A DNA stretch of 31,495 nt from a virus (Duplodnaviria > Heunggongvirae > Uroviricota > Caudoviricetes), in the IMG/VR virus record IMGVR_UViG_2778261428_000002; one strand, given 5' to 3'. The notes under the pieces were generated by a model, which was not told where the DNA came from, did no database searches, and saw nothing but the letters and a program-made list of their open reading frames with translations. Below are positions 1-30,518 of this stretch, piece by piece; within the stretch, counting starts at the first letter, position 1, and each line of letters starts with the position of its first letter. A program made the position numbers and the translations under genes.

Positions 1-1200
1 ATGCTGACCGATACCAAGCTGAAAAACCTCAAAGCGCGGGAAAAACTTTATAAAGTTGCAGACCGTGATGGGCTGTATGTAACCGTATCTCCCAATGGAT
101 TGGTGACGTTTCGCTATGACTATCGAATCAATGGTCGTCGTGAAACGTTAACGATTGGTCGCTATGGTGACGGTATTTCTCTGGCGCAGGCGCGCGAAAA
201 ATTAGTGGAAGCTAAAAAACGCGTAAATGCAGGAATATCGCCCGCTGGAGAGAAGCGTGACGGTAAAACAAAGCGAAAAGAAGAAAAGACACTCCACGAT
301 TTTACCGTCAGCTACATGAAACACACCCGGCTGGCGGACAGCACAAGGGCGATGAAGCAAAGCATTATCGACAGAGACATCACCCCAGTATGGGGGCGCA
401 AGCTGCTGTCAGAGATAACCCCCTCTCTCCTACGTGAGTATTGCGACAAGATAAAAGCGCGTGGTGCGCCAGCGACGGCGATTCAGGTTCGCAATATCGT
501 TAGTGCGGTATTTAAGTTCGCCGCGCTTCACGGCGACTATTACCCCAATCCTGCCGAAGAGGTTTTACCGGCTTCAATTGCGACATTCGAAGCGCGCGAC
601 AGGGCGCTCAAGCCAGAGGAGATAGGCTGGTTTTTCAATCAGCTTGAACAAACGGGTACATTACCCACCATCAAGCTGGCCATTAAATTGGTTTTATTAA
701 CGATGGTGCGTAAAAGTGAACTGCTGAACGCGCCGTGGGGTGAGGTTAATTTTAATGCCTGCCTTTGGACGATTGACGCCAGCCGGATGAAGGGATCACG
801 GGATCATAATGTTTATCTGTCCCGGCAGGCACAGGACATTCTGATTGCCCTGAAAATGTGCGCAGGAAGCAGTGATTGGGTTTTGCCTTCATGCAATCAG
901 TCGTCGCATAAGACCATGTCGGCGGCGACCTTAAACCGGGTCATTAATCTTACGGTTAAGCAGGCGCAGGAACGGGGGATCAGGCTGGCGTCGTTTTCCG
1001 TTCACGATATGCGCCGAACGGCCTCGACGTTATTGCATGAGGCGGGGTTTAATTCCGACTGGATAGAAAAATGCCTCGCGCACGAGGAAAGAAGCGTCAG
1101 AGCCGTTTATAACAAAGCGGAATACGCAGAGCAGCGCCGTGATATGTTGCAGCAGTGGGCGGATATGGTTGATGGGTGGATCAAGCAATACCGCCCGTAA
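1..1200 (+). CDS. int: Tyrosine integrase, P4/CP4-57 family
   Basis: 399-aa ORF. N-terminal arm-binding region typical of P4-type integrases (LTDTKLKNLK...YKVADRDGLYVTVSPNG). C-terminal catalytic residues present: HDMRRT (HxxR), LAHEE, VYNKAEY (Tyr). Family assignment is from memory of the fold, not a search. Confidence 0.9.
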   Translation: MLTDTKLKNLKAREKLYKVADRDGLYVTVSPNGLVTFRYDYRINGRRETLTIGRYGDGISLAQAREKLVEAKKRVNAGISPAGEKRDGKTKRKEEKTLHDFTVSYMKHTRLADSTRAMKQSIIDRDITPVWGRKLLSEITPSLLREYCDKIKARGAPATAIQVRNIVSAVFKFAALHGDYYPNPAEEVLPASIATFEARDRALKPEEIGWFFNQLEQTGTLPTIKLAIKLVLLTMVRKSELLNAPWGEVNFNACLWTIDASRMKGSRDHNVYLSRQAQDILIALKMCAGSSDWVLPSCNQSSHKTMSAATLNRVINLTVKQAQERGIRLASFSVHDMRRTASTLLHEAGFNSDWIEKCLAHEERSVRAVYNKAEYAEQRRDMLQQWADMVDGWIKQYRP

Positions 1201-1440
1201 GTACTATGCGGGGATCTTGGTACCAGAGCGCTTTGGTGCTTTGGCCAGATTCTTCTGTACCGCACTGTCAATATGGTGATGGTTATTTTCCTGCCGAGTC
1301 TTGAGCCAGCGTTCCACTTCCTCTTTGTCCCACGCGACGGCGCGCTTCGTTAGCGCAAAACGTTGGGAAACAGGCCTTTTTGCTCCAACGCATAAATCGT
1401 ACTTTCAGAGAGTGGCACCATCTGTAAAAGCACGTTTTTT

Positions 1441-1818
1441 CTAATGGCAATTTTCATTGTTTTCCCCATGCCGTTCGGCGTTCAGGTGTTGCCACTGCGC
1501 TGCAATCCGCTTCATCACCGCATTCCCCTCCGGGATCACCTCCTGCGGCTCTTTCATCAACATTATCCGCCCCCGGATAACGATCAGCGCCTGTTCCAGC
1601 AGGTCATAGTCCAGATAACAGAGGTCGGGAATATCCAGTTGCCACACGTAGCCATTCCATGCAGAAAGCAGTACCTGCGCAGCCGCGCGTCCGCCGGTGG
1701 TTTCTGTGAGAGCAACGTCGACAAGGGTATTGACAGCAAGGCGGTATTCCTCTGGCGTTACGCAAAGTCTTTGTCGTTGGGTTTCTTGCGTTGCCAGAGC
1801 CTTAAATATTTCGTTCAT
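1441..1818 (-). CDS. Hypothetical protein, 125 aa, last gene of the early operon downstream of the primase
   Basis: Complete ORF on the same strand 10 bp downstream of the primase stop. No motif I can recognise. Confidence 0.55.
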   Translation of the reverse strand: MNEIFKALATQETQRQRLCVTPEEYRLAVNTLVDVALTETTGGRAAAQVLLSAWNGYVWQLDIPDLCYLDYDLLEQALIVIRGRIMLMKEPQEVIPEGNAVMKRIAAQWQHLNAERHGENNENCH

Positions 1819-1827
1819 AACATTTCC

Positions 1828-4482
1828 TTATCGTTGAAAAACCCAACACTTCACCGTCGCCGGGTGGCGCGATGCGGCTGGGTAACGGCGGTTAAATTCA
1901 GCGTTGATGCCGCTGTTAACCGTTCTGACTTCAATAAACTTGTGGGTACGGCTGGTTTTCAGTACCCGCTTTAAATCGCTGACTGGTGGGATCTGCTGGC
2001 GACGTTCGGTGGCCAGTTGAATAAAGTGGTTAAGGTTGACGGCGATAAGCTGTTCATCGCGCGAGTGGTTGAGCTGTGGTTCGTCGTCGCCATCGAGGAA
2101 GTCGAAAATATCCCAGAACTCCTGCACCAGAGGGTGGTCGGCGCTGATGGCCTGCTGGCGCTCCAGACTGAGGCGGATAAACATTTCTCTGGTTGCCTGT
2201 AGCTGCTCCTTCGTGACCGGAATAACCAGCGCCAGCGCGTCGAGCAGCGCCATAAGCTGGGCGTGGTTTTTAATGATGCGGATATGGCGAATATCGGGGT
2301 GGGCGTGAAGCTGCTGCTCGTATAGCGGGATCTGCCGGTTGACGCACTCCAGCACGGCCTGTTCCGCCAGCGCTGCTTTCAGCATAAAGCCGGAAAGCTG
2401 TTCCACCGGCAGGCGTTCGAGCTGCTCGGCAGCGACCTTGGTCTGAGTATTCTGGCCGCTGCGGTCGGTGTACAGGTGAATAATACGTTCCAGCACCGGG
2501 TTAGAGGCGCTAACGTCGGCGTTTTGCGCAATCACAATCGAGCCCCGGAACGGAGGTTCATAGGTCTCGTTACCGCTGTTACGCAGACCGCGAGACCGCA
2601 CTGACCGCCCGTTATAGGCGGTTTTTAGCTCTTCCCAATCAAAGCCGCGTTGCTTTGCACCCTCCTGATTACGGTCACCCTCGATCAGCACCACCGGCAT
2701 GTTCGCCACCTGCGCAAAGTTGCGCGCGCGGGCGGCCAGCGTTGATTTAGACGGATCGAAACCTTCATAGTCGCGTCGGCCTAACAGCTTCCAGAGAAAC
2801 TCTATCAGCGTGGTTTTGCCGCTGCCGGGTTCGCCAACGATTTCCAGAAACGGAAAGCTCTTGTGCTTGTCGCGGATCTGTTCGGCAAACATCGTCCCAA
2901 GCCAGAACGCCAGCGCCACAAAGCCCTTTGCGCCAAACGCCTGCCAGAGTAGCTGGGGCCACTGGCTGTCCATCTGTTTTAAATTGTCGTTCAGCGTCAG
3001 GCTGACCGACTGGTTCAGGCTTTTAAGGCTGAGTTTGCCCATGTCGAAGAAGTCTTCTTCGTTGAGTGTGTACAGCCGACCATCGCGAACGGCCAGATCG
3101 TTGAACACGTAAGCGCGGTATTCTTTGCTGTAGCCGATAAAATCAGTGGTCTGGACAGTTTTGATTTTGGGAAGCTGCTTGAGCAGCAACTTATCTAACT
3201 GCTGACTGGTGCCGGTGAAGATGCCGCCCTGCGCGATATGCAGCAGGCGCTTTTTGAATTCTGAGCCGCTGGAAAGTTGGGAGCCGGTGAAGGTGTTTTT
3301 TATCGGCGGCGTGTCGTCCGGGAAGTTAATGCGAAAGTAATACCAGCTTTCGTCGGTGATGGTGTTGGCCTGATAGTAGAGGGCGGTCGGGTAGCAGTTG
3401 GCGATCTCCACCACGGCGGACGACTCTTTCAGCGCCTTCTGTTTCAGCTCTTCTTCGCTCAGGTCGTCATTGGAGAATGAGATACTTTCATGCACCCGCA
3501 TATAGCGGTCAATATCCAGCTTGAACCAGAACAGGCGGCTGTCAAACTCGAAGTGGAACTCTTTACGCTCTGTCTGTTCGTGCATCAGCAGGGCTTTGGC
3601 GGCGGGAGAGGTGGCGATCAGCAGAGAGCCGTAGTAGCGGTATTTCTTCACTAGCTCTGGGTTAAGCCGGTCGCGTTGGTGCAAATCGTTCCAGTCCAGC
3701 TTGCTGCGGGAATGCGGCGTCTGTGCGGCGGCTGCGCTCCAGCCTTCGTCCCGGCTGCGCTTTACCCATCGCCGGGTATAGCTCATGCCCGCCTTGTCGT
3801 TATCCAGCGCCCAGACCAGTAAAGGGCGCTTTTTATCCACGAACAGCGCGGCCAGTTGGCTTAACGCCTGCGCCGGATAGTTGTTACAGGTCATCAGGGA
3901 AACGGCGGCAATGCCGTGGTGGTGCAGGGCGATAGCGTCAAAAATGCCCTCAACCAGCCAGATCTCCTGCTGTTCTTCCAGCTTCAGCGTTGGCAATAGC
4001 CACCATAGCCCGCTGTAAGCGCCGTGAAAGTTGGCTTTGCGATCGCCGAAACGCTGTGGGCGGTCAACGATCCGCTCCCACCACACGCCGTCAGCCAGCG
4101 GGAAACGTACCGTCGCTGAACCGATATCACGCCGTGGGTCGTAGTAGTTCTCTTGAGTGTAACAGTCACGGATCAGCGAAAGGTCAAAGCCGCGCATCTC
4201 GCGCAGGTAGGCATCGGCGGCGGCCTGTGGGTTTTCCGGGGTTGGGGGATATCTGTCTGACCAGCTTTCAAACAGATCCGGGTACATATCTTTGATGTGG
4301 ATTTCGGCATTGCATTTATTCAGGCGACCGCAGCGCAATACCCACGGGCTGATGGCATTGGTGTACAGCTCTTTTTTCTGGCAGTCCGGGCAGATGCCCT
4401 GCCGCAGCCAGTCGCCCTGTTCTTTAAAGGAAAAGTCGGCCAGTAGTCGCCGCGTAATTTCCTGATGAAGTTGTGGTTGCAT
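1828..4482 (-). CDS. P4 alpha-like primase-helicase (zinc-finger primase plus D5-type NTPase)
   Basis: 884-aa ORF. N-terminal Cys cluster (CPDCQKK...CGRLNKC), acidic TOPRIM-like segment (LVEGIFDAIALHHHG...LDNDKAG), Walker A (GEPGSGKTT) and downstream hhhhEGD Walker B-like motif (VVLIEGD). Confidence 0.85.
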   Translation of the reverse strand: MQPQLHQEITRRLLADFSFKEQGDWLRQGICPDCQKKELYTNAISPWVLRCGRLNKCNAEIHIKDMYPDLFESWSDRYPPTPENPQAAADAYLREMRGFDLSLIRDCYTQENYYDPRRDIGSATVRFPLADGVWWERIVDRPQRFGDRKANFHGAYSGLWWLLPTLKLEEQQEIWLVEGIFDAIALHHHGIAAVSLMTCNNYPAQALSQLAALFVDKKRPLLVWALDNDKAGMSYTRRWVKRSRDEGWSAAAAQTPHSRSKLDWNDLHQRDRLNPELVKKYRYYGSLLIATSPAAKALLMHEQTERKEFHFEFDSRLFWFKLDIDRYMRVHESISFSNDDLSEEELKQKALKESSAVVEIANCYPTALYYQANTITDESWYYFRINFPDDTPPIKNTFTGSQLSSGSEFKKRLLHIAQGGIFTGTSQQLDKLLLKQLPKIKTVQTTDFIGYSKEYRAYVFNDLAVRDGRLYTLNEEDFFDMGKLSLKSLNQSVSLTLNDNLKQMDSQWPQLLWQAFGAKGFVALAFWLGTMFAEQIRDKHKSFPFLEIVGEPGSGKTTLIEFLWKLLGRRDYEGFDPSKSTLAARARNFAQVANMPVVLIEGDRNQEGAKQRGFDWEELKTAYNGRSVRSRGLRNSGNETYEPPFRGSIVIAQNADVSASNPVLERIIHLYTDRSGQNTQTKVAAEQLERLPVEQLSGFMLKAALAEQAVLECVNRQIPLYEQQLHAHPDIRHIRIIKNHAQLMALLDALALVIPVTKEQLQATREMFIRLSLERQQAISADHPLVQEFWDIFDFLDGDDEPQLNHSRDEQLIAVNLNHFIQLATERRQQIPPVSDLKRVLKTSRTHKFIEVRTVNSGINAEFNRRYPAASRHPATVKCWVFQR

Positions 4483-4570
4483 TGCCAGTACCTTTATTCA
4501 GGTAATACTTACCCGTCGCATAGACACGTTGTTTATGCGTTGTGGTTGTGAGTCTTTTATTTACTGAGCG

Positions 4571-4801
4571 TTACGCGATTTTCTGTTTTTGCAGAAATTG
4601 CCCGCGTGTGGATAGTGGTATGTGTATCTTAGGATTCGGGCAACCGCTCGGTACCACCGTTCCCATCACGGTTTCCATTGCGATAAATGAAAACGAACAG
4701 TTAACGTTTTTGCACTGGTAATAGAGCTTACGTACCAGCGGTGACATATATTCGCTGCTGCGAATTATCGCCTTACCGTCGCAGTGTGGGCATTTCATCA
4801 T
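4571..4801 (-). CDS. ogr: Ogr/Delta-family zinc-finger late transcription activator
   Basis: CPHCDGKA...YYQCKNVNCSFSF matches the Cys4 motif of P2 Ogr / P4 Delta. I moved the start to the ATG-ATG at 4801 (MMKCPHC), which has GGAGA 6 nt upstream; the ORF track start at 4819 has no RBS. Confidence 0.85.
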   Translation of the reverse strand: MMKCPHCDGKAIIRSSEYMSPLVRKLYYQCKNVNCSFSFIAMETVMGTVVPSGCPNPKIHIPLSTRGQFLQKQKIA

Positions 4802-4837
4802 GTCCTGTCTCCTTACCACTTTTAACTAACTGAAACA

Positions 4838-5044
4838 CTAACGCTTTTCGTTAACGGACTGACGAAATAGTGTGATGCCGTTCAAAAAAATGATTCTTGC
4901 CATGCTGGACATCGAACGGTTCTGATCCAGCGCTAATGCTTCCAGTTCCGCGATTTCAGCGGGGAGCAGGCGCATTGCCACCGGTTTGTTCGACATCACC
5001 CCGCGAGGCGCTCTTGAGCGTAAGACGTTCTCATTTGTTTTCAT
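4838..5044 (-). CDS. Small putative DNA-binding regulator, first gene of the early lytic operon (Cox/Apl-like position)
   Basis: 68-aa ORF divergent from the HTH repressor gene and immediately upstream of ogr-like and primase genes. Start uncertain (Met 1, 17 or 24). Confidence 0.45.
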   Translation of the reverse strand: MKTNENVLRSRAPRGVMSNKPVAMRLLPAEIAELEALALDQNRSMSSMARIIFLNGITLFRQSVNEKR

Positions 5045-5124
5045 GGTGGTATATTGTGGTTATTAACATTACACAATCTATAATTCCCTCAATTGAGTGA
5101 ATTGTCAATGGTAATTATATCCAA
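5045..5124. promoter_or_regulatory. Divergent switch region between early-operon regulator and HTH repressor gene
   Basis: 80-bp AT-rich gap between divergent starts. Contains TTGTG-N13-CACAA and repeated CAATTG/GAATTG motifs that could be operators. Promoter elements not resolved. Confidence 0.4.
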
Positions 5125-5460
5125 ATGAAAGAATTTGGCATCCGTTTGAAGGAAGAACGTATCCGACTTGGACTTGATCAAGACGGCTTTGGACAACTTG
5201 GGGGCGTGAAGAAAAACGCACAAAGCAACTATGAGAATGGGTTGCGCAAGCCGGACAGTGACTATCTTGCTGGCATAGCGGCAGCGGGAGTTGATGTTCT
5301 GTATGTTCTAACAGGCAACCGCACGCCTGTGGTTACGTTGTCCAATAAAGAGAGTGTGTTGGTGGAAAACTATCGTTCTGCTACGCCAGAACACCAGTCC
5401 ACCCTTGACACGGTTAGCGCTGCGCTTGCGCAACCGATGAATTGTCGAAAAGTACAATGA
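5125..5460 (+). CDS. XRE-family helix-turn-helix repressor (prophage C/CI-like, or cassette regulator)
   Basis: 111 aa. N-terminal HTH_XRE pattern (IRLKEERIRLGLDQDGFGQLGGVKKNAQSNYENGLRKPDSDYLAGIAAAGVDVLYVLTG). Divergent from the early operon. Confidence 0.75.
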   Translation: MKEFGIRLKEERIRLGLDQDGFGQLGGVKKNAQSNYENGLRKPDSDYLAGIAAAGVDVLYVLTGNRTPVVTLSNKESVLVENYRSATPEHQSTLDTVSAALAQPMNCRKVQ

Positions 5461-5491
5461 TTTATTAATTTCAGCTTATTAGGGAGTAATT

Positions 5492-6580
5492 ATGGCAAAT
5501 GTCGGCTTTTCTTTTGAGGGGGTGATGATTGAAAGAATTATTGCTCATCGAATCTTCCCAAGGTCTCCCGATAAGCAAATGGTTCCACCTAAGTTAAGTA
5601 ATCAGTTAATAACGTTAGAACAAGATGCTTTGGATGCACTACAGGTTCGTATAACAGAAGCCTTAGGTAATAAATCTCATGGCATTGAAATGTCTATCAC
5701 TGATACCGGTGATGATAGTTTTTTTGCACTGACAACGTCTGTACTACATGTTGAAGGCGAATCATTTATTAACGTATCTAAGCGATTGGCGCATAAGTTA
5801 ACAGAAGCTCAATATAGTGCGGGGAAGGTTTCCGGTGGTGTGTTAGTAATCATTACGGGAAAAATTGGTGAACAAGCCTGCCCATTCTTTGCTGTACTGC
5901 GTGCTGAAATGCAAAACGGATTTCGGACCAATGATACCCCAGAGAAAATAGCGATGGAGTATATTGCTGACTTATTACTTACACCAACTCAGCGGCTTTA
6001 TAAAATAGGAGTGTTGATTGAGTGTGAGTCAGGCCATGAATTGATTGATGGTCGTTGTGATACGCAATATTATCGTTCATTTTTATTTGATCACTTGATG
6101 ACATCGACGGAAACTAAAAATGCTGCGGGGTATTTTTACAGTGTTTTTCTTGGAATGGGGATCGAAAAATCCTCCAAGAAATTGACGCAGGATTTTTTTG
6201 AACATACTCGAAATTTCATTAATCAGGCTCCAGTTGATGAAGAAACTAAGTTTGATTTACACGAGTCATTACGTTCTGAACTGAGAAGTCAGAAAGCAAC
6301 TTTGAGTACCGCTTCGTTTGCTACGGAACATCTTCCTCAAGAATTACAGACGAGCTATCAGTCATTTATGGCTCAAAAAGGTTTTCCGCAGAATGCAGTG
6401 TCTAAAGATACTGATTATATTAAGAAAAAGCTTCGTCGTAGAAGTAAATTAGTGTTTACAAGCGATGTATGGATATCCATACCACCAGATCAAGTAAAAG
6501 AACTGGTACAGATTGAACAAACAGATGATGATGAGTCAACTACACTTAAAGTCAAAGGGCGGTTGAAAAGTCAAGAATGA
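5492..6580 (+). CDS. Hypothetical 362-aa protein, partner of the RSH-domain protein; function unknown
   Basis: AGGGAG RBS 8 nt upstream. AT-rich relative to the phage backbone. Stop overlaps the next start (ATGA). No catalytic motif recognised. A weak, memory-based resemblance to NA37/YejK nucleoid-associated proteins is unverified. Confidence 0.7.
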   Translation: MANVGFSFEGVMIERIIAHRIFPRSPDKQMVPPKLSNQLITLEQDALDALQVRITEALGNKSHGIEMSITDTGDDSFFALTTSVLHVEGESFINVSKRLAHKLTEAQYSAGKVSGGVLVIITGKIGEQACPFFAVLRAEMQNGFRTNDTPEKIAMEYIADLLLTPTQRLYKIGVLIECESGHELIDGRCDTQYYRSFLFDHLMTSTETKNAAGYFYSVFLGMGIEKSSKKLTQDFFEHTRNFINQAPVDEETKFDLHESLRSELRSQKATLSTASFATEHLPQELQTSYQSFMAQKGFPQNAVSKDTDYIKKKLRRRSKLVFTSDVWISIPPDQVKELVQIEQTDDDESTTLKVKGRLKSQE

Positions 6581-7578
6581 TGAGTATAGAGGATTTTAGA
6601 CGTTATCTGGTTGAAAACCATGCTGCTTATGAAGCATGGGGTAAACATATTGCGTCTGAAATCAATGCGGCTTTGATTGAACAACTTGGTGAAGGGGCCG
6701 CCCAGCTCTTCATCAAGGTACCACCCACTCCGAGAGTTAAAGGTATCGAGTCCGCATTAGGGAAGGTTGGTCGTAAAGGTTATAACAACCCTGTTCAGCA
6801 GATGACGGATCTCGTTGGCGTTCGTTTTGTCGTTTTACTTTCTGAAGATATTGAGACAATCTGTAAAATCATTCAGAATAATGAACAATGGATAGCTGTT
6901 GTTTCTAAAGATTATCAGGATGAAATAGAGGTAAACCCTAAACTATTTGATTATCAATCAAAGCATTTTGAAATAAGGCCAAAGATAAATAGCGTTATAT
7001 CGGGAGTTAATATTACAACTGATATGTGCTGTGAAGTACAAATTAGAACATTATTGCAGCATGCGTATGCAGAATTAGTTCATGATAGCGTTTATAAACC
7101 TGTTGGCCCAGTACCGAAAAAAGCGGAGCGCCAAATTGCGCGTAGTATGGCTTTGATGGAAACAACAGATGAATTATTTTGTAATACAATGCGGCTTTTA
7201 TGTGATACTAATAAACCAAGAAATGATTTTTTAAAGGAGTTAAAAGATTTTTATATAAATAAAATTGGGAGACAGTATTTAAATCAGGAAGATAAAATAA
7301 ATTATTGTTTTTTAGATGAGTATAGGTCGTTTATACAAGAAGATCTTTTGACTAATCTAATCGACCTTCTTGATAAGAAAAAATATATATCATATAAAAT
7401 CCAACAAAGGGCTACTGCCAATCTTTTTTTTGCGCAGCCAGTGGTCATTTTTACTTACTGGCTGGCAATAAATGAAGACAGTAATAAATTACAGCAAGAA
7501 TGGCCGTTACCTGGATATTTGAACGAATTGAGAATGATTTTAAGTGATGTTGGTGTAAGTAGCGGTATTGGATATTAA
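6577..7578 (+). CDS. RelA/SpoT-homologue (RSH) nucleotidyltransferase-domain protein, small alarmone synthetase / toxSAS-like
   Basis: 333 aa. Synthetase motifs in order: PRVKGIESALGKVGRKG, MTDLVGVRFVV (DxxGxR), DYQ...FDYQSKHFEI, CCEVQIRTLLQHAYAELVH (ExQxRT...H.aE). C-terminal ~140 aa is Lys-rich and very AT-rich. Stop converges on gene D with a 4-bp overlap. Confidence 0.75.
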   Translation: MMSIEDFRRYLVENHAAYEAWGKHIASEINAALIEQLGEGAAQLFIKVPPTPRVKGIESALGKVGRKGYNNPVQQMTDLVGVRFVVLLSEDIETICKIIQNNEQWIAVVSKDYQDEIEVNPKLFDYQSKHFEIRPKINSVISGVNITTDMCCEVQIRTLLQHAYAELVHDSVYKPVGPVPKKAERQIARSMALMETTDELFCNTMRLLCDTNKPRNDFLKELKDFYINKIGRQYLNQEDKINYCFLDEYRSFIQEDLLTNLIDLLDKKKYISYKIQQRATANLFFAQPVVIFTYWLAINEDSNKLQQEWPLPGYLNELRMILSDVGVSSGIGY

Positions 7579-8681
7579 TCTTCCAGCCCCAACTCACACT
7601 CCACCGCCGTCCCATACCCACTGCTGTTATCCAACGTATGCACGCACCGCGTAATCACCCACGCGGTGCCGTCAATCTCCGCCTTAAACCCCTTCACCTG
7701 CACCGACAGTTCCGGGAACAAATCGGGCCGTCCGCGCGCAAGATTCAGGCTGAACGTTGCCGCGCCTCGCTGTAATAGCTCCCACGCGCTTTTTGCCGCT
7801 CTGTAGGCGTTATTTTTGTTGGCATAGGTGTGGCGCAGCACCTTGATATTTCCCTCTTCGCCGACCATCACGTTATCGGCGTTGAATGAGGTGTCTGACG
7901 TCGGCGATTCTGTTGGTTGCGTTTGCGGAAGATTTTTCCGTGTCTTGCGCTTCACGTCAGTTGACTGCTTTTTAGCCTGCCGCGTATCCAGCCAGTAGGC
8001 CGTTACGCCGGTATAGGCTTCCCTGTCCGCGATGCTGAACCGGTGGCTGTCGCCGTCCTCGCGGTTAATGGTTGCGACCGGCAGCGGCTTGCCGCTGGCG
8101 CTTTTACCGGAACCTGTCGGCATCAGCAGCAGAGCATCATTTTTCACGCAGGCGATAGCGCCGTGCATTTGCGCCAGCCGGGTTAGGAAGGACGCATCAG
8201 ACTCGTTAGTCTGGTCAACGTGCTCAATGGCGATCCCAGCCAGCTCGCCGCTGACGGTTGATTCCAGCTTATGACGTGCCGCCACGGTTTGCACAATCGC
8301 GCCCAGCGTCACATCATGGTAGCTCTGTTCCCGTTTAACGTTCAGCGAATCGCGGAAATCGGCGCTGCGGGCGCGGAGACTGAGTACGTCCGGTGCGCCG
8401 CTGTGCTCCAGTTCGTCCACGGTGAAGACATTCTGGTGCATCACGCCGTCACCCTTCCAGCCCAGAGAAACCGTTATTTTTTCGCCCTTTGCCGGAAACG
8501 CCAGCAGGCCGTCGCTGTCGTCCAGTTCGAGCTGCAGTTCGTCGGCCTCAAAGCCCCGGTTGTCGGTGATACGCAGGCTGATTAAGCGGTTGTCCAGATT
8601 CCGCGTAATGTCCTTACCGTTCAGCACCACGCTGTACTCCGGCTGCGGCTGGGCGTTTAAGAGTGCGTTTAACATCGTCAT
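7575..8681 (-). CDS. D: Tail protein D (P2 gpD-like)
   Basis: 368 aa in the conserved position after U. Start overlaps the U stop (ATGA). Confidence 0.85.
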   Translation of the reverse strand: MTMLNALLNAQPQPEYSVVLNGKDITRNLDNRLISLRITDNRGFEADELQLELDDSDGLLAFPAKGEKITVSLGWKGDGVMHQNVFTVDELEHSGAPDVLSLRARSADFRDSLNVKREQSYHDVTLGAIVQTVAARHKLESTVSGELAGIAIEHVDQTNESDASFLTRLAQMHGAIACVKNDALLLMPTGSGKSASGKPLPVATINREDGDSHRFSIADREAYTGVTAYWLDTRQAKKQSTDVKRKTRKNLPQTQPTESPTSDTSFNADNVMVGEEGNIKVLRHTYANKNNAYRAAKSAWELLQRGAATFSLNLARGRPDLFPELSVQVKGFKAEIDGTAWVITRCVHTLDNSSGYGTAVECELGLED

Positions 8682-9106
8682 AGTCCGTCTACCATCGTGA
8701 TGATGTCGCCCAGCAAGCCACCTAGCTTCGGCGGATCGACACGTTTTAACGCCAGCGTAAACTCAATGCGCCGGGCCGCACCATCGCGAAAAAAGACGCT
8801 GCGGGTGACGTTCAGGCTCTCAATCACAAACCAGCCATGCAGCGAGCCGGTGCCTTCAATCAGCGGCCACGCCATCCCCTGATCGGCCATCTTACGCAGG
8901 AAAAACAGAGTAAAGCGCCCGCCGGTCAGTTCCGGCAACAGCACGCCGTTTAGCGTAATGGTTTCGTCACCCACGCCGATAAACTGGCTGGCCGGACGTA
9001 GCCCCACGCGGGAACTGGCAGGATGCCGCCACGCTACGGCGTGCTGCATATCCTGATAGGGCAGGGTTTTCAGGCTGAAGACGAACAGCCCCAGTACCAT
9101 CATCAT
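8678..9106 (-). CDS. U: Tail protein U (P2 gpU-like)
   Basis: Start moved to MMMVLGLFVF (GGAGG RBS 5 nt upstream). Product of about 142 aa resembles P2 gpU as I recall it (TLPYQDMQ, LPELTGG, FTLALKRVD). Confidence 0.85.
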   Translation of the reverse strand: MMMVLGLFVFSLKTLPYQDMQHAVAWRHPASSRVGLRPASQFIGVGDETITLNGVLLPELTGGRFTLFFLRKMADQGMAWPLIEGTGSLHGWFVIESLNVTRSVFFRDGAARRIEFTLALKRVDPPKLGGLLGDIITMVDGL

Positions 9107-14173: not shown

Positions 14174-14196
14174 CTTGTAACCACAGGCACTACAAG
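14174..14196 (-). promoter_or_regulatory. Late-promoter dyad CTTGTAA-N10-TACAAG upstream of FI
   Basis: Near-perfect 23-bp inverted repeat, centre about 83 nt upstream of the FI start. Same motif occurs three more times. Confidence 0.6.
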
Positions 14197-14208: not shown

Positions 14209-14967
14209 TTAATTCAGGATAATCAGTTCTGATGTAGCGCTGGCTGGCTTTCCGCCTACGGTATAGCGAATCCCTACCGTTGAGAATGTCAGGCCGTGGA
14301 AGATATCGCGCATTTCCGGGATGTCGTTAACCGAGATAATCATCCGGCCCTGCATGGTGCGCGCCAGCTCTGCCATACGCTGGTACTGCTCAAGGCCAAA
14401 CGGTACGCCGTAGCCTTCGGTTTTCCAGTATGGCGGGTCGCAGTAGAACAGGGTATGCGGGCGGTCATAGCGGCGAATACAGTCGGCCCAGTCCAGATTT
14501 TCAATACAGACGCGCGCCAGCCGCAGATGGGCGGCGGATAAATCTTCCTCCATACGCAGCAGGTTCAGGCGTGGCGGTGAGGTGGTGGCGGTACCGAACG
14601 TGCGGCTTTCCACCTTGCCGCCGAACGCCAGCTTTTGCAGATAGTAGAAGCGCGCCGCGCGCTGGATGTCGGTCAGCGTTTCTTCCGGGGTGATCTGGAG
14701 CCAGCGGTACATTTCGCGGCTGACCAGCGACCATTTAAACTGGCGGACAAACTCTTCTAAATGGTGCTGGAGTACCCGGTAGAGGTTGGTAACGTCACCG
14801 TTGATATCATTCAGCACCTCGGCCTGAGCGGGGCGTTTCATAAAGAACAGCGCCGCCGCTCCGCAAAATGGCTCGACGTAACAGCGGTGTTCAGGAAACA
14901 GCGGCAGGATGTGTTTCGCCAGTCGGCGTTTGCCGCCGATCCACGGAATAACGGGTAACGTATTCAT
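14209..14967 (-). CDS. dam: DNA adenine methyltransferase (Dam-like, N6-adenine)
   Basis: 252 aa. SAM-binding FCGAAALFF and catalytic DPPY (YCDPPYWKTEGY). Sits between tail-fibre genes and FI. Confidence 0.85.
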   Translation of the reverse strand: MNTLPVIPWIGGKRRLAKHILPLFPEHRCYVEPFCGAAALFFMKRPAQAEVLNDINGDVTNLYRVLQHHLEEFVRQFKWSLVSREMYRWLQITPEETLTDIQRAARFYYLQKLAFGGKVESRTFGTATTSPPRLNLLRMEEDLSAAHLRLARVCIENLDWADCIRRYDRPHTLFYCDPPYWKTEGYGVPFGLEQYQRMAELARTMQGRMIISVNDIPEMRDIFHGLTFSTVGIRYTVGGKPASATSELIILN

Positions 14968-16126: not shown

Positions 16127-17634
16127 GCCAGCCTCACGATATAGTTGAAAGCGATATTTTTAACGGTGTTTTCGGCGTTCCCGGCGGCATTCACCGTAAT
16201 AGTGTGGCTGTGGGAACCTAAGACGACGGTGTGGTTATGTGCGCCGATAGCCAGCGAATGGGTATGTGCGCCGATAGCAACGGTGTGGGCGTGGTTGCCA
16301 TTGGTACTTGTCACGTCCCTGAAATCTTCATCGCTATTATCAGAACCCACCACTGACGCCATATTCTTCCCTGTTTTTATGCCGTCAGTCGGAATTTGGT
16401 GGTTGTGCGCGCCGGTGGTATTGGTCGATTTTGTCCCGTAGTCAAACGCGCTGGTATTTTTGGTACCCAAATCGGTGGAACTGGCGGTTTTAGTACCTAA
16501 ATCCGTGTTAGTGGCGCTGGCGGTGTGACCATGCGATTTAATGCCATCCTGCTCCTGAGACAGTATCGTGCGTCCGCTGGCGGGTTTCCCCTTGATTGTC
16601 CAGCCGCGCATATCCGGGATTACACCGGAGGGGTAAGCGATTGCCAGCTTAGGGTAGGAGGTTTTATTGAAGGACTGACCGACCATCAGGGCGTAGCCGC
16701 TGGGGATGGCATCGGATGACCACGGTATCGGCGCGCCGACCGGACAGGTTTCCGCCGCCAGCGCTTTGTCTACTGCCGCTTTTACCGCTTTAGGCGTGGC
16801 GGCCAGCGTTTCGCTGGTGCTGTCGATGGCGCTACTAAGCTGGGCAACCCCTTTGCGCGTCGTGGTGGCATCCTGCTCGGTATATTTTCCATTAGCCAGA
16901 TCGTAGGCCGCTTTCACCGCTTTGGGCGTGGCGGCGAGCGTTTCGCTGGTGCTGTTGGTTTCGCTGCTAAGCTGGACAACCCCTTTGCGCGCTGTGGTGG
17001 CATCCTGTTCGGTATATTTTCCATTAGCCAGATCGTAGGCTGCTTTCATCGCTTTGGGCGTGGCGGCCAGTGTTTCGCTGATGCTGTTGGTCGCGCTGCT
17101 TAATTGGGCAAATCCTTTGGCGGTTAAGGTGGCGTCAGGATGGTTACGGGACTGCGCGTGGCGGGATAGGCCTTCATCCACATACTGTCTTGTTGCCAGC
17201 ACCACGGCAGGGTCGATTTTCAGTTCCACGTTTTCCGTATGGGAGACAATCAGCACCATGCGGATAATCTGTGTGCGGCCCGAACCTTCGATTAACTGCG
17301 GCTTGTAGGTTGGCGGGCAGTTGCCGACGGCAATCAGCCGGTCGTGCTCGTCGTACAGGCCAATTTCCCTGATCCACCATCCGCCTACGTCCTCCGGCAA
17401 TACCTGTTCGGCAATAATCTGGTTGGGGTTGTTAGGGTCAATACTGAGCGTATTCAGCGGCGCACGTCGGCGTTCGTTGACTAACCGGGTTTGGCCGGTA
17501 TCCGGCGTTGGCAGGTTACCATTTCCGTCACCAACGGCCATTTGCGTCAGATGAAGAGGCGAACCCTGTGCGGTGGCGGTCGCCAGCGCGGATTCGCCGG
17601 TAGTGGTTAATAGCGTGAAATAGGTAGCGCTCAT
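16123..17634 (-). CDS. H: Tail fibre protein (gpH-like)
   Basis: 503 aa. Conserved N-terminal baseplate-attachment region, three tandem ~44-aa repeats, C-terminal HxH repeats ([24 protein letters not shown]). Confidence 0.85.
16787..17182. repeat. Three tandem ~132-bp direct repeats inside the tail fibre gene
   Basis: Units begin near 16787, 16919 and 17051 and are near-identical. They encode the repeated segment [29 protein letters not shown]. Third unit diverges at its end. Confidence 0.8.
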
Positions 17635-20139: not shown

Positions 20140-20162
20140 CTTGTATTGTGGATTTTTACAAG
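20140..20162 (-). promoter_or_regulatory. Late-promoter dyad CTTGTAT-N10-TACAAG upstream of V
   Basis: 23-bp inverted repeat between the moron stop (20166) and the V start. Spacing to V is shorter than at the other three sites. Confidence 0.55.
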
Positions 20163-20165
20163 CGG

Positions 20166-20621
20166 TTAAATCCAGTGGATTTCGGTAACTTCAGGGTTCG
20201 CACAGCCTGTTTTAAGAGACACAAAAACGGCATATTTATAACCCAATTGTTCTTTAAACGCCTGCAGCTTGAGGAGGTCTTTTTCTCTGCCATTTCTTTG
20301 GTTGTTGGTCGATTTTTTCAGTTCGAACGCAATCAGGTTTTCATCGGTTCCTCGGTGGTGAACGATAATATCCGGGATAACATCACGTTCGCTTGCATTT
20401 CCGTTAGGTTCAACTGCGTAAATTAATCTTTTAACTGCATCCCCATTTCTATTGTATTCACAGTCTACATCCCATTCCGGGAAGTTATTTTCCAGATATC
20501 TACCCAAGCGGTTGGCGATAGCCCGTTCACTATTATCTGTAATCAGCAAATGAGCATCGTTACGCAAAAGTTCATTGATAGCGGCTCGCGTTGATTCTTC
20601 AACAGTATGTTGATTAGGCAT
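20166..20621 (-). CDS. Moron: hypothetical 151-aa protein with possible PD-(D/E)xK nuclease-like motif
   Basis: AT-rich ORF between S and V (P2 orf30 position). AAGGA RBS. Residues VIPDIIVHH...IAFELKK give a D-x19-ExK pattern. Confidence 0.65.
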   Translation of the reverse strand: MPNQHTVEESTRAAINELLRNDAHLLITDNSERAIANRLGRYLENNFPEWDVDCEYNRNGDAVKRLIYAVEPNGNASERDVIPDIIVHHRGTDENLIAFELKKSTNNQRNGREKDLLKLQAFKEQLGYKYAVFVSLKTGCANPEVTEIHWI

Positions 20622-23644: not shown

Positions 23645-23667
23645 CTTGTAACTGAGGGCAGTACAAG
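23645..23667 (-). promoter_or_regulatory. Late-promoter dyad CTTGTAA-N10-TACAAG upstream of X
   Basis: 23-bp inverted repeat, centre about 84 nt upstream of the X start, just downstream of the island's small minus-strand genes. Confidence 0.6.
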
Positions 23668-24562: not shown

Positions 24563-24751
24563 ATGGCGAAGAATAGCAGTCCTGCCAGCCGATACGGTAT
24601 CAAGGTCGTAAAAAGAGACAGTATGAGTGGGCAGTTCGTACCCGTCGAAATGAAACTGGACGGCCCGGAAGGTGAGCGTGTGATTAAAAAGTCGGCAGAA
24701 CGTATTTATGCCAGACACAACAAAGTCATTAAGGCGCTGGCTAACCGATGA
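24563..24751 (+). CDS. Putative antitoxin partner of Doc (family not recognised)
   Basis: 62 aa with GAGGT RBS. Stop overlaps the doc start (ATGA). Confidence 0.55.
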   Translation: MAKNSSPASRYGIKVVKRDSMSGQFVPVEMKLDGPEGERVIKKSAERIYARHNKVIKALANR

Positions 24752-25125
24752 TTGATGCACATTTGGTGATTGGAATTCACGATTTTATTCTTGCTCATGA
24801 GCCGGGATTGGTTGGTTATCAGGATGCTGGCCGGGTCGAGGCAACACTGGCGCGGGTGGATAACCGTATTCTGTATGAGCAGATGAATGATATTTTCCAG
24901 ATCGCCGCATCTTATGCGGTTGCCATCGCCAGAGGGCACGTTTTTGCTGATGCCAACAAGCGAACGGCACTGGTGACGGCGTTGACATACCTTGATATGC
25001 AGGGTGTGAACCTCAAGCGAACACAAAAGCTGGAAGATATTATGGTGGATGTGGCTGAGGGAACGCTGAATCTGGATGATTTAGCCGATATTTTCTATAC
25101 CCTTAGTGATGTAAATGCTTCCTGA
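24748..25125 (+). CDS. doc: Doc (death-on-curing) / Fic-family toxin
   Basis: 125 aa. Fic/Doc active-site motif HVFADANKRT (HxFx(D/N)(A/G)NKR). Confidence 0.85.
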   Translation: MIDAHLVIGIHDFILAHEPGLVGYQDAGRVEATLARVDNRILYEQMNDIFQIAASYAVAIARGHVFADANKRTALVTALTYLDMQGVNLKRTQKLEDIMVDVAEGTLNLDDLADIFYTLSDVNAS

Positions 25126-28651: not shown

Positions 28652-28674
28652 CTTGTAATCATCCGGGTTACAAG
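28652..28674. promoter_or_regulatory. Late-promoter dyad CTTGTAA-N10-TACAAG in the O/P divergent intergenic region
   Basis: Perfect 23-bp inverted repeat, centre about 84 nt from the O start and 72 nt from the P start. A degenerate half-site lies nearer P. Confidence 0.6.
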
Positions 28675-28734: not shown

Positions 28735-30518
28735 ATGCCGCCAGACATCGAAAAACATCTGCTTGCCCTTCAGGATGAAGATCCACGCCGCAAAGCCCGC
28801 TATCTGTACTGGCAGGGTTTTCGCATCGCGCGGATCGCCGAACTGTTGGGGGTGAAAGTTACCACGCTGCATAGCTGGAAGCGGCGCGACGGCTGGGATG
28901 AATCCGCCCCGCTGGAGCGGGTGACGGCGGTGACCGAGGCGCGTCTGATCCAGCTCACGGTGAAGGAAAATAAAGAGGGGAAGGATTTTAAGGAGATCGA
29001 CCTGCTCTGGCGGCAGATGGAGCGCGGGGCAAGGGTTGAACGCTATCAGCAGGGAGGCAATGAGGTCGACCTGAATCCTGCTCTTGCGAAGCGTAACGCC
29101 GGGCCGCGCAGACAGCCGGAAACCAACCATATCAGCGAGGAGCAGGCGGAGAAGCTGAAACAGCTATTTCTGGACGGGCTGTATCCGCACCAGAAACACT
29201 GGTACCGCGCCGGACTGGAACACCGTATCCGCGATATCAACAAGTCGCGCCAGATTGGGGCGACGATGTTCTTCGGGCGGGAAGGGTTTATGGATGCGGT
29301 GGAAAGTGGGCGCAACCAGATCTTTCTCTCTGCTTCCAAAGCGCAGGCGCACCAGTCCGCCAGTACATTGTCGATTTTGCTCGTGAGGCGGATGTTGAGC
29401 TGAAAGGCGAAGTCATTCACCTGCCGCATAATGATAGCCGGATGTATTTTCTCGGCACTAATGCCCGCACCGCCCAGACCTATCATGGCAACCTGTATCT
29501 GGATGAATACTTCTGGATACACCGCTTTCTGGAACTGCGCCGTAACGCGGCGGGGATGGCCAGCCAGAAGCGCTGGCGGCAAACCTACTTCTCCACGCCG
29601 TCCAGCATCACCCATGAAGCCTATAAGTTCTGGACAGGGCAACTGTTCAACAAGGGCAGGCCGAAGAGCGAACAGATTCGACTGGATATCAGCCATCGGG
29701 CGCTGTCGGCAGGGCGGTTGTGTGAAGACGGCCAGTGGCGGCAAATCGTCACCGTTGAGGATGCCATCAATCAGGGTTATGACCTGTTCGACCTTGAGCA
29801 ACTCAGGCTGGAGAACTCGCCGGAAGAGTTCGCCAACCTGTTTATGTGCCAGTTTATTGACGATACCGCATCGGTATTCCCGCTCAGCATGTTGCAGGGT
29901 TGCATGGTCGATAGCTGGGAAGTCTGGGACGACTACAAGCCGTTTGCCCTGCGTCCGCTCGGCGAACGCTCGGTATGGGTGGGCTACGATCCGGCGTTAA
30001 GCGGCGACAGCGCCGGATGCGTGGTGGTCGCGCCGCCGGTCATTGAGGGCGGCAAGTTTCGGGTAATTGAAAAGCACCAGTGGCACGGGATGGACTTCGC
30101 GGCGCAGGCGGAAAATATCCGCAAAATTACCGAGCGCTATAACGTGACTTACATCGGTATTGACGTGACCGGCATCGGCCACGGCGTGCATCAACTGGTG
30201 AAACAGTTCTTCCCGGCAGTGCAGGCATTCTCTTATTCCCCAGAAGTGAAACAGCGTCTGGTGCTGAAAACGCTGGACGTTGTCCGTAAACGCCGACTGG
30301 AGTTTGACGCCGGATGGACGGATCTGGCGCAGGCATTTATGGCGATCCGCAAAACCCTGACTCCGTCCGGGCGTCAGGTAACCTTCGAGGCCAGCCGTTC
30401 GGAAGAAGTCTCCCACGCGGATCTGGCATGGGCGTGTATGCACGCCATTATCAATGAACCACTGGAAAGCTCCGGCGGCGCGAACAGCGGGCGGGGCTTA
30501 ATTAAGGTGTACGGATGA
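28735..30518 (+). pseudogene. P: Terminase large (ATPase) subunit P (gpP-like), interrupted by a frameshift
   Basis: Two adjacent ORFs in different frames (28735-29403 and 29442-30518) together cover a full terminase. The second frame reads [21 protein letters not shown] through the first ORF's stop. Total length is 3n-1, so a 1-nt loss near 29350-29362. Confidence 0.7.

Follow-up and report, generated by a model that had tools for sequence, protein, structure and literature searches.

The stretch of DNA analysed here (the window, 31,495 nt) is one complete P2-like (Peduoviridae) prophage, delimited by the start codon of int at one end and the stop codon of the portal gene at the other. ORF, Pfam and phrog analyses place all genes that the earlier note had described within positions 1–5044 where it had put them. 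E. coli L725 carries a 98%-identical prophage, from which the PGAP gene names were taken. The following features are considered:

1–1200, plus strand: int, P4-family tyrosine integrase with an arm-binding N-terminal domain, 399 aa (Pfam, BLASTP)
1204–1457, minus strand: AlpA/Vis-type excisionase/regulator gene (xis), frameshifted (alignment to L725)
1441–1818, minus strand: DUF7673 protein, 125 aa, directly downstream of the primase-helicase (PF24720, 2.4e-17; phrog_6694, 3e-40)
1828–4482, minus strand: 884-aa primase-helicase of the phiCTX ORF37 / RSY1 ORF47 family (Pfam, phrog, BLASTP, AF2 model)
4571–4801, minus strand: Ogr/Delta-type zinc-finger late-gene activator, 76 aa (PF04606, 1.2e-19)
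4838–5044, minus strand: Arc-like ribbon-helix-helix protein, 68 aa (phrog_3431 'Arc-like repressor', 4e-24)
5045–5124: switch region with candidate operators (promoter-like sites face to face and a 40-bp imperfect palindrome)
5125–5460, plus strand: cI-type HTH repressor, 111 aa, divergent from the early operon (HTH_3 and HTH_31, about 3e-5; phrog_8 and phrog_4 repressors)
7575–8681: gpD, with a low-GC two-gene cargo and then the divergent cI-like repressor, not ogr, as its 3' neighbours
14174–14196: late-promoter palindrome of the FI (sheath) operon, CTTGTA-N11-TACAAG
20140–20162: late-promoter palindrome of the V (baseplate) operon, same motif
23645–23667: late-promoter palindrome of the X/lysis/R/S operon, same motif
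28652–28674: late-promoter palindrome in the divergent P/O intergenic region, its position matching the shared activator site of P2 pP/pO

The virion genes are P2-like in content and order, as had been claimed. Specifically, when the window ORFs were compared by tblastn with P2, phiCTX and RSY1, they were found to follow the P2 order Q-P / O-N-M-L-X-lysis-R-S / V-W-J-I-H-G / FI-FII-E-T-U-D. Amino acid identity to the P2 structural proteins is 37–67%, and the structural genes are approximately equidistant from the three phages. Outside the structural genes the picture is different: among the non-structural proteins of P2, tblastn finds a match in the window for Ogr alone, and homologues of A, B, Cox, C and Int are absent from it. 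Among the P4 proteins only Int and Delta match, and Psu, Sid, Epsilon, cII, Gop and Beta have no tblastn match in the window. Megablast of positions 1–8700 against the phage collection found nothing except a 188-bp integrase fragment in epsilon15. By these comparisons no cultured phage is close at the DNA level; for the head genes the nearest phage DNA is that of the RSY1 group.

The integrase belongs to the P4 family and is not P2-type, in agreement with the earlier note. BLASTP aligns it with P4 Int end to end (E 4e-40, 30% identity over 410 aa), whereas neither P2 Int nor phiCTX Int is matched significantly. All three domains were found by Pfam: Arm-DNA-bind_3 (DUF4102; PF13356) at residues 2–86 (2.9e-21), the central SAM-like Phage_int_M (PF22022, 8e-11) and the C-terminal catalytic Phage_integrase (PF00589, 7e-20). 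In the alignment with P4 Int the catalytic R...HxxR...H...Y residues coincide, namely R237, H335/R338, H361 and the tyrosine of RAVY. Between int and the DUF7673 gene lies the AlpA/Vis-type gene, which the earlier note had overlooked. It matches Pfam Phage_AlpA (7e-13) and shares 34–39% identity with P4 Vis and 38% with RSY1 ORF48.

The 3' end of a tRNA gene is a typical, though not strictly defining, target of arm-type P4-family integrases. A tRNA-associated attachment site, which the earlier note had proposed to look for, was not found, and there are no tRNA genes in the window. In relatives, i.e. the near-identical E. coli L725 prophage and also the Edwardsiella copy, the att core consists of the last codons of guaA. 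In E. coli L725 ATYGAGTGGGAATGATT is located at the guaA stop, and its second copy lies 34.2 kb away. A single att pair brackets the entire 34-kb element, with no internal copy of the core. The guaA core was seen in near-identical prophages, beyond the limits of the window, and the arm sites of Int, likewise beyond the window, solely in the L725 relative. We propose that the P4-family Int together with the AlpA-type Xis would recombine at this 17-bp core formed by the last guaA codons.

The 884-aa replication protein combines a Cys4 zinc ribbon, a DnaG-type Toprim primase, an N-terminal helicase domain, a P-loop ATPase and a putative C-terminal helical/winged-helix part. It matches phrog_1139 'DNA primase' with E=0 (residues 3–884 on profile positions 2–889 of 895) and Pfam Toprim_2 with 3e-12, plus a P-loop; many of its relatives have precomputed PF13362 matches, and NCBIfam gives only a weak DnaG Toprim match. 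Over 98–100% of its length the protein is 41–58% identical to phiCTX orf37 (48.6%), RSY1 ORF47 (57%), ESSI2_ev239 gp29 (52.5%) and the Smp131 primase. Among the candidates scored, 1934 relatives from across Proteobacteria have E <= 1e-5. Residues C31/C34/C51/C57, E178, D227, Walker A G550–T558, E601/D603 and Q653/N654 are invariant in 40 relatives and cover the Zn-Cys4, the Toprim E/DxD, Walker A and B, and sensor-1.

Searching solved structures by sequence gave nothing meaningful. In the AF2 model (pLDDT 83.7) the C-terminus is a helical part with a beta-hairpin. Foldseek aligns the model with Cch (5dgk, 1.8e-15), SaPIbov1 Rep (8tch, 2.7e-12) and DnaG RNA-polymerase domains (5e-7 to 1.4e-4). 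Cch of SCCmec and SaPI Rep are mobile-element helicases, and 8tch was deposited under the name of a replication-initiation protein. Of the solved structures these two match the C-terminal ~550 residues best, at 10–13% sequence identity, and it is by its modelled fold that the helicase appears related to Cch. Their solved chains have 484–519 residues and comprise approximately the helicase part only, whereas the window protein adds a fused DnaG-type primase. The BFVD fold search returned DUF927 proteins at about 1e-15, with Toprim+DUF927 phage proteins among the neighbours; the Pfam DUF927 profile itself is not matched by the protein at E <= 0.01.

The earlier note had called this protein P4 alpha-like. 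Both proteins share the functional plan of a zinc ribbon, a Toprim primase and a P-loop helicase in one polypeptide, but homology does not bear the label out. BLASTP against P4 alpha is not significant: two weak matches, E 0.07 (P-loop region) and 0.12, are collinear and lie at the Toprim and Walker A regions. In hhalign against the P4 alpha family the Toprim alone was aligned (residues 150–311 with 184–345, probability 63%, E 7e-5), and a helicase alignment was not found. The domains that define P4 alpha, PF08273, PF08706, PF19263 and PF03288, are absent in the 884-aa protein and its relatives; PF03288 is the marker by which alpha is called in satellite searches (PMC8628076). More specifically, zinc-binding PF08273 is present in those P4 alpha relatives for which Pfam domains are listed, whereas the window family has a Cys4 ribbon without PF08273. 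The helicase part is not of the D5_N/DUF5906/Pox_D5 type as in P4 alpha, the Toprim being the only detectable homology, and P4 alpha is missing from the top 50 BFVD fold matches. The C-terminal winged-helix domain of P4 alpha binds the type-I repeats of ori and crr; P4-type repeats were not found in the window. The 884-aa protein falls outside the P4 alpha family, and its likeness to P4 alpha is one of architecture and probable role only. It is also unrelated to P2 A (best BLASTP E 4.5), and P2 A and B gave no tblastn match in the whole window, which agrees with the earlier statement that the P2-type replication gene is missing.

From its motifs and fold, the protein would have primase, helicase and origin-recognition roles. 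It would act as a single-polypeptide initiator, in which the DnaG-type zinc ribbon and the Toprim primase are joined to a hexameric helicase of the Cch/SaPI-Rep kind, and which most likely handles the recognition and opening of an iteron origin, unwinding and priming. Replication would then start by theta-type initiation as in P4 or SaPIs, whereas P2 gpA works by nick-primed rolling circle. Six AAGGTAA(C/T)C iterons make up the candidate origin, which lies past the right end of the window and was seen only in the L725 relative (L004, 33940–34225); no convincing iteron family was found within positions 1–8000. The DUF7673 gene is a conserved partner of the primase, present in the same place in Edwardsiella (L008) and Erwinia (L009).

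The Arc-like gene comes first in the early operon, where P2 has Cox and 186 has Apl. Its orthologues in Edwardsiella and Erwinia are 75–82% identical and have the same position; the cI-type repressor likewise has orthologues in the same place at the Edwardsiella and Erwinia loci, at locus L011 and at Pseudomonas loci. In and around the region between the two genes there is a promoter-like site on the minus strand (TTGACA-17-AATTAT, 5108–5080) facing one on the plus strand (TTCTCA-16-TATATT with an upstream TG, 5028–5055), both of them consensus matches only, and the imperfect palindrome I1 occupies 5073–5112. It is likely that the repressor and the divergent early promoter make up the immunity switch. 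After derepression one leftward transcript would probably carry the Arc-like protein, Ogr, the 884-aa primase-helicase, DUF7673 and the AlpA-type Xis. The Arc-like gene, ogr and the primase gene are on the same strand with gaps of 36 and 88 nt, and between them there is neither a sigma-70-like promoter nor a conserved intrinsic terminator. The earlier note had ogr co-transcribed upstream of the primase rather than following gene D. Its position in the early operon stands, and co-transcription with the primase is suggested by the gene geometry. A weak hairpin with a T-rich tail between the Arc-like gene and ogr (4856–4836) was considered as an attenuator and rejected; it is not conserved in the Edwardsiella and Erwinia spacers.

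The ogr gene starts with ATG behind an AAGGAG ribosome-binding site, and the 88-nt gap separates it from the ATG of the primase. The translation contains the motif CX2CX22CX4C as C-PH-C-(22)-C-KNVN-C, and the protein is 47% identical to RSY1 ORF40, 42% to P2 Ogr and 31% to phiCTX orf34. The sequence CTTGTA-N11-TACAAG occurs exactly four times in the window, where chance would give 0.02 occurrences, and each copy is located 55–85 bp upstream of a late operon. The P2 late consensus TGT-N12-ACA has two matches in the window, which is below chance, and neither is at a promoter. The spacing of the TGT...ACA dyad is N13, the same as in RSY1 (PMC5694545). We suggest that Ogr expressed from the early operon would bind these palindromes and activate the four late promoters.

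Among the closest known layouts is that of RSY1 (Ralstonia; Peduoviridae, Arsyunavirus; PMC5694545), with the same order of T-U-D, cargo, leftward repressor and rightward early operon. From D through cargo and repressor to Ogr, primase, Xis and P4-type Int the window follows the RSY1 order. The RSY1 integrase ORF49 is a convergent arm-type P4-family enzyme, 26% identical to that of the window, and the structural proteins are 38–69% identical. RSY1 differs in having extra small early ORFs between ogr and the primase, a betaproteobacterial host and no DUF7673 match. Moreover, it integrates into tRNA-Ser, whereas the window element uses guaA, judging by its relatives, and its late palindrome is TGTTGT-N13-ACAACA as compared to CTTGTA-N11-TACAAG in the window. 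In phiCTX (Pseudomonas; Citexvirus), which also has P2-like structural genes, the early operon stands behind D, cargo and repressor, with the ogr-like orf34 upstream of the orf37 primase-helicase. Its integrase is of another tyrosine-recombinase type, co-oriented with the early operon and targeting tRNA-Ser. In Smp131 the Ogr gene orf34 is upstream of orf39, a primase of the same family as in the window (PMC3931495). Locus comparison found the window layout also in Edwardsiella ictaluri, Erwinia, Azorhizophilus, Mycoavidus and Propionivibrio.

P2 (Peduovirus) and 186 (Eganvirus) share with the window the head, lysis, tail and baseplate genes, which come in the same order, late promoters that carry a TGT...ACA dyad and depend (in the window, putatively) on Ogr, and the face-to-face arrangement of the repressor/early promoter switch. 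In contrast to them, the window has no homologues of A (the HUH nickase), B, Cox/Apl, C and the P2-type Int, its ogr is in the early operon and not after D, and int and att are cos-proximal instead of being beside ogr. ESSI2_ev239 (Escherichia; Evevirus) has a primase-helicase of the window family followed by a small gene of similar size, yet its Int, C and Cox are P2-type, its ogr-like gene lies beside the portal gene on the opposite strand, and its structural genes have diverged much further from those of the window. As judged from its gene content, ESSI2_ev239 shows that replication and integration modules reassort within the family.

Taken together, positions 1–5044 very probably hold the module for lysogeny, early functions and replication of a P2-like prophage belonging to the phiCTX/RSY1 branch, not of a P2 x P4 hybrid. 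Finding a P4-family integrase, a primase-helicase fusion and an ogr gene in the early operon beside P2-like head and tail genes is ordinary, the arrangement having been published with phiCTX, Smp131 and RSY1. The closest phage DNA of the head genes being that of the RSY1 group points to inheritance of the layout within this lineage rather than to a recent exchange.

Whether the module still works in this particular copy is a separate matter. There is an even chance that it does not and that what is left is a defective prophage, locked in place and retained for the cargo genes that it carries. The AlpA/Vis-type gene has a 1-bp deletion at 1362 relative to E. coli L725, where the counterpart is an intact ORF of 84 aa, and the terminase gene gpP has a 1-bp deletion at 29355 relative to the intact L725 copy. 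E. coli CEC15 also has an intact copy of the prophage. Since xis and gpP are each frameshifted by 1 bp, the copy in the window is probably defective. The shortened xis allele recurs in three further assemblies (L042, L043 and L046), two with a truncated primase of 819 aa and one with a split tape-measure gene. Defective P2 and P4 elements are reported to retain conserved, likely functional defence genes (PMC13586616). Against this, both deletions are in short homopolymers (TTT to TT and TT to T) and may be sequencing errors in the record, and the remaining genes, including int, the primase-helicase and ogr, are all intact.

The earlier note had regarded the early region as a modular swap. In its strict form, a P2-type phage would recently have exchanged its int, cox, A, B region for a P4-type satellite's int and alpha module. 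The window does share with P4 the integrase family with its three-domain architecture, the AlpA/Vis family and the Ogr/Delta family, as well as the order of functions in the replication protein, and the weak alpha matches are collinear. These identities are at the level of deep families (about 30% for Int, 34–39% for Vis), below what is expected after a recent transfer, and the alpha-defining domains, the helicase alignment and the alpha fold neighbours are all lacking. Moreover, the entire layout is found in RSY1 and in distant genera, Ogr precedes the same primase in phiCTX and Smp131, and the best phage match of the head genes is again the RSY1 group. We regard such an exchange as highly improbable and largely refuted. 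There is next to no probability that two elements lie side by side, i.e. a satellite-like int/xis/primase-helicase/ogr-delta element next to a P2-like prophage stripped of early genes: although the block is at one prophage end and its int, alpA, primase-helicase and ogr/delta are four of the seven 'core components' of P4-like satellites (PMC8628076), a tandem is rejected on account of the single att pair and the absence of psu, sid and epsilon, the window has no second repressor/switch or P2 early genes, and in RSY1 and phiCTX, both of which were isolated as virions, this layout is packaged in one genome (PMC5694545).

The window element has the full virion gene set and no psu, sid, epsilon or cII as compared to P4; annotation pipelines and satellite finders should not take int + alpA + primase + ogr/delta as P4-derived. 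We know of no biochemical characterisation of any member of the phiCTX ORF37 family, which makes this very abundant family a reasonable target for enzymology.

It is improbable, but conceivable, that the Int–AlpA/Vis–primase-helicase–Ogr/Delta block, which adjoins the att site and, in relatives, the iteron field, represents the phage-side ancestral module of P4-like satellites, from which virion genes were lost, psu, sid and epsilon gained and the alpha helicase domain later replaced. If this is true, it would address where P4-like elements come from, a question stated as open (PMC8628076).

The main value of the analysis is a correction: the P2 A nickase is not used by every 'P2-like' prophage. 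A large and widespread branch appears to rely instead on a Cch-like helicase with a Toprim primase fused to it, and the same branch would put Ogr under the direct control of the immunity switch.

The early region of this prophage departs from P2 in exactly the way already described for Ralstonia phage RSY1 (PMC5694545). The window is a single 31.5-kb P2-like prophage that ends exactly at the int start codon and the portal stop codon. E. coli L725 and CEC15 each have in the chromosome, flanked by guaA and yfgI, a stretch that is 98.5% identical to window 1-8700. According to the NCBI annotation of the L725 copy and tblastn, the P2 gene order is complete (Q-P / O-N-M-L ... X-lysis-R-S / V-W-J-I-H-G / FI-FII-E-T-U-D), and by tblastn the window's proteins are 37-67% identical to those of P2, 37-65% to Pseudomonas phage phiCTX and 36-69% to RSY1. 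For the head genes the closest phage DNA is that of the RSY1 group (66% identity), and the Escherichia P2/186 phages are not the best match. When all P2 non-structural proteins were compared with the window by tblastn, Ogr was the sole match; among all P4 proteins only Int and Delta matched. The early region contains the following genes:

1-1200, plus strand: int, with the three-domain architecture of arm-type integrases
1204-1457, minus strand: AlpA/Vis-type excisionase gene (xis), overlooked in the earlier note and frameshifted in the window
1828-4482, minus strand: 884-aa ORF with a Toprim domain and a P-loop
4571-4801, minus strand: Ogr/Delta zinc finger (late-gene activator family), with an exact CX2CX22CX4C motif and an AAGGAG ribosome-binding site
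4838-5044, minus strand: Arc-like gene, 68 aa, first in the early operon
5125-5460, plus strand: cI-type HTH gene, divergent from the early operon

The int, 884-aa and Ogr/Delta genes named in the earlier note thus exist at these positions. Its observation that ogr precedes the primase gene instead of following gpD also holds: ogr lies 88 nt upstream on the same strand, and low-GC cargo occupies its place downstream of gpD. In the 80-bp spacer between cI and the early operon, promoter-like hexamers face each other and an imperfect palindrome spans 40 bp. Some 40 nt before the start codon of the primase gene there is a small CGCATA...TATGCG hairpin (4500-4545, minus strand), and after it comes a conserved leader, TATTACCTGAATAAAGG; hairpin and leader have the same location in the Edwardsiella and Erwinia orthologues. 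The hairpin is ruled out as an intrinsic terminator because it has no U-tract.

The earlier note read this arrangement as a modular swap, a question that was decided by comparison with phages already in the literature. In RSY1, T-U-D and cargo are followed by leftward regulators, then by ORF40 (Ogr, 47% identical to the window's), small ORFs, the primase gene ORF47, the AlpA-type excisionase gene ORF48 (38%) and, convergent with these, ORF49 for an arm-type integrase (26%). In phiCTX the ogr-like orf34 lies three genes upstream of orf37, and the early region of the P2-like phage Smp131 includes an Ogr homologue and a primase (PMC3931495). The D / cI / ogr / primase order is common to Edwardsiella, Erwinia, Azorhizophilus, Mycoavidus and Propionivibrio loci. 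In many Pseudomonas prophages and in Escherichia phage ESSI2_ev239 this primase occurs together with an ogr near the portal gene. The shared layout and the RSY1-group match of the head genes therefore indicate that the layout is inherited within a known Peduoviridae branch; it is the standard phiCTX/RSY1-type organisation and not a swap. Reassortment of modules does occur in this family: the Int of ESSI2_ev239 is P2-type, whereas some Pseudomonas loci with portal-proximal ogr have P4-type Int genes. The observation behind the earlier interpretation is confirmed, the interpretation itself partly supported.

Regarding the integrase, BLASTP aligned 410 residues with P4 Int at 30% identity (E 4e-40); the catalytic residues (Arg, His-x-x-Arg, His, Tyr) are in register. 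Similarity to P2 Int and phiCTX Int was not significant. The designation as a P4-family enzyme is therefore correct. The tRNA-associated att site that the earlier note proposed to look for did not materialise: no tRNA gene was found across the window, and the att core in L725 is at guaA. The sole long-range direct repeat bracketing the L725 element, ATYGAGTGGGAATGATT, consists of guaA's final codons and its stop (attL 213-229 and attR 34454-34470 in the coordinates of the L725 locus, L004). An 88-90%-identical Edwardsiella ictaluri prophage is located at the same guaA end. Outside the window, ACGGTA(A/T)A repeats on either side of the att core (L004 357, 394, 421 and 34375, 34387) are candidate Int arm sites.

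The 884-aa protein is unrelated to P2 A, so replication is indeed not P2-type. The label "P4 alpha-like" stands as a functional analogy and fails as family membership. BLASTP against P4 alpha was not significant, giving two weak collinear segments (Toprim region, E 0.12; Walker A to motif C, E 0.07), and in a profile-profile comparison of 40 relatives with 16 alpha homologues the Toprim domain alone aligned (probability 63%, E 7e-5). Alpha homologues have the Pfam domains PF08273, PF13362, PF08706, PF19263 and PF03288, the protein's own family only PF13155 with or without PF13362. It matches phrog_1139 end to end (E=0) and is 57% identical to RSY1 ORF47, 52.5% to ESSI2_ev239 gp29, 48.6% to phiCTX orf37 and 45.6% to its Smp131 counterpart, in a very large family spread over Gamma- and Betaproteobacteria. 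Across the 40 relatives there is no variation in the four cysteines of the zinc site, in the Glu and DxD of Toprim, in Walker A (GxxGxGKT) and Walker B (E601/D603), or in a Q-N sensor motif. The top PDB neighbours of its AlphaFold model (mean pLDDT 83.7) are two helicases, Cch of SCCmec (E 2e-15) and Rep of SaPIbov1 (3e-12), followed by DnaG RNA-polymerase domains, PriRep1 and T7 gp4 primase. Comparison with a viral structure library placed it beside phage proteins of the Toprim+DUF927 type, and P4 alpha was not found among the best 50. We conclude that the protein lies outside the P4 alpha family and, judging from motifs and model, would work like alpha, a single polypeptide priming and unwinding and probably also recognising the origin. 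Beyond the window's right end, L725 has six AAGGTAA(C/T)C iterons (L004 33942-34221) within a 67% A+T stretch that lies between the portal gene and attR and none elsewhere in its prophage; this stretch is a candidate origin for the primase-helicase.

This copy is probably defective. Relative to L725, where xis is whole (84 aa; Pfam Phage_AlpA, 7e-13), one T lost at 1362 frameshifts xis and a 1-bp deletion at 29355 frameshifts the large terminase gene gpP, both in short T runs. Three other assemblies share this xis allele, and some of them are decayed further (819-aa primase, split tape-measure gene); its frameshift is therefore probably genuine.

A cargo of two genes with low GC (38-43%) separates the repressor gene from gpD (5492-7578, plus strand). 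It encodes a 362-aa NA37-family nucleoid-associated-like protein and a 333-aa RelA/SpoT-domain protein, the latter a partial match to PADLOC candidate PDC-S33 (1e-13). In the GMF054 prophage, which is 99.4% identical, this slot contains DUF6037, another NA37-family protein (20% identical) and an unknown of 418 aa; NA37-like genes thus recur with varying partners, and the slot resembles a modular locus that is a candidate for defence. The P2 orf30 slot, a low-GC island flanked by V and S, holds a 151-aa ORF (20166-20621, minus strand; PADLOC PD-Lambda-3_A, 1.3e-38); there L725 encodes a distinct "abortive phage resistance protein". The L/X cargo slot contains a 62-aa ORF followed by a 125-aa Fic/DOC-family ORF (24563-25125, plus strand; PF02661, 2.6e-10), probably a toxin-antitoxin pair of the Phd-Doc type; in L725 a RelE/ParE pair takes this place. 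A gene for a Dam-type DNA adenine methyltransferase (14209-14967, minus strand; PADLOC MTase_II, 4e-114) occupies the P2 Z/fun position, with the sheath gene on one side and the tail-fibre genes on the other. The tail-fibre gene H region (16775-17100) aligns in several registers to three tandem 132-bp repeat units in the tail-fibre gene of L725 (L004 17225-17700), so copy number differs between the two prophages.

The P2 consensus TGT-N12-ACA was absent from promoter positions. CTTGTA-N11-TACAAG occurs exactly four times in the window (0.02 expected): once in the P/O spacer and once ahead of each of the X, V and FI operons, with 55-85 bp between site and start codon. Its TGT/ACA core has N13 spacing, as in RSY1 (PMC5694545). 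These predicted sites support a working Ogr regulon. Because ogr lies behind the repressor-controlled early promoter, derepression would probably be linked directly to late activation.
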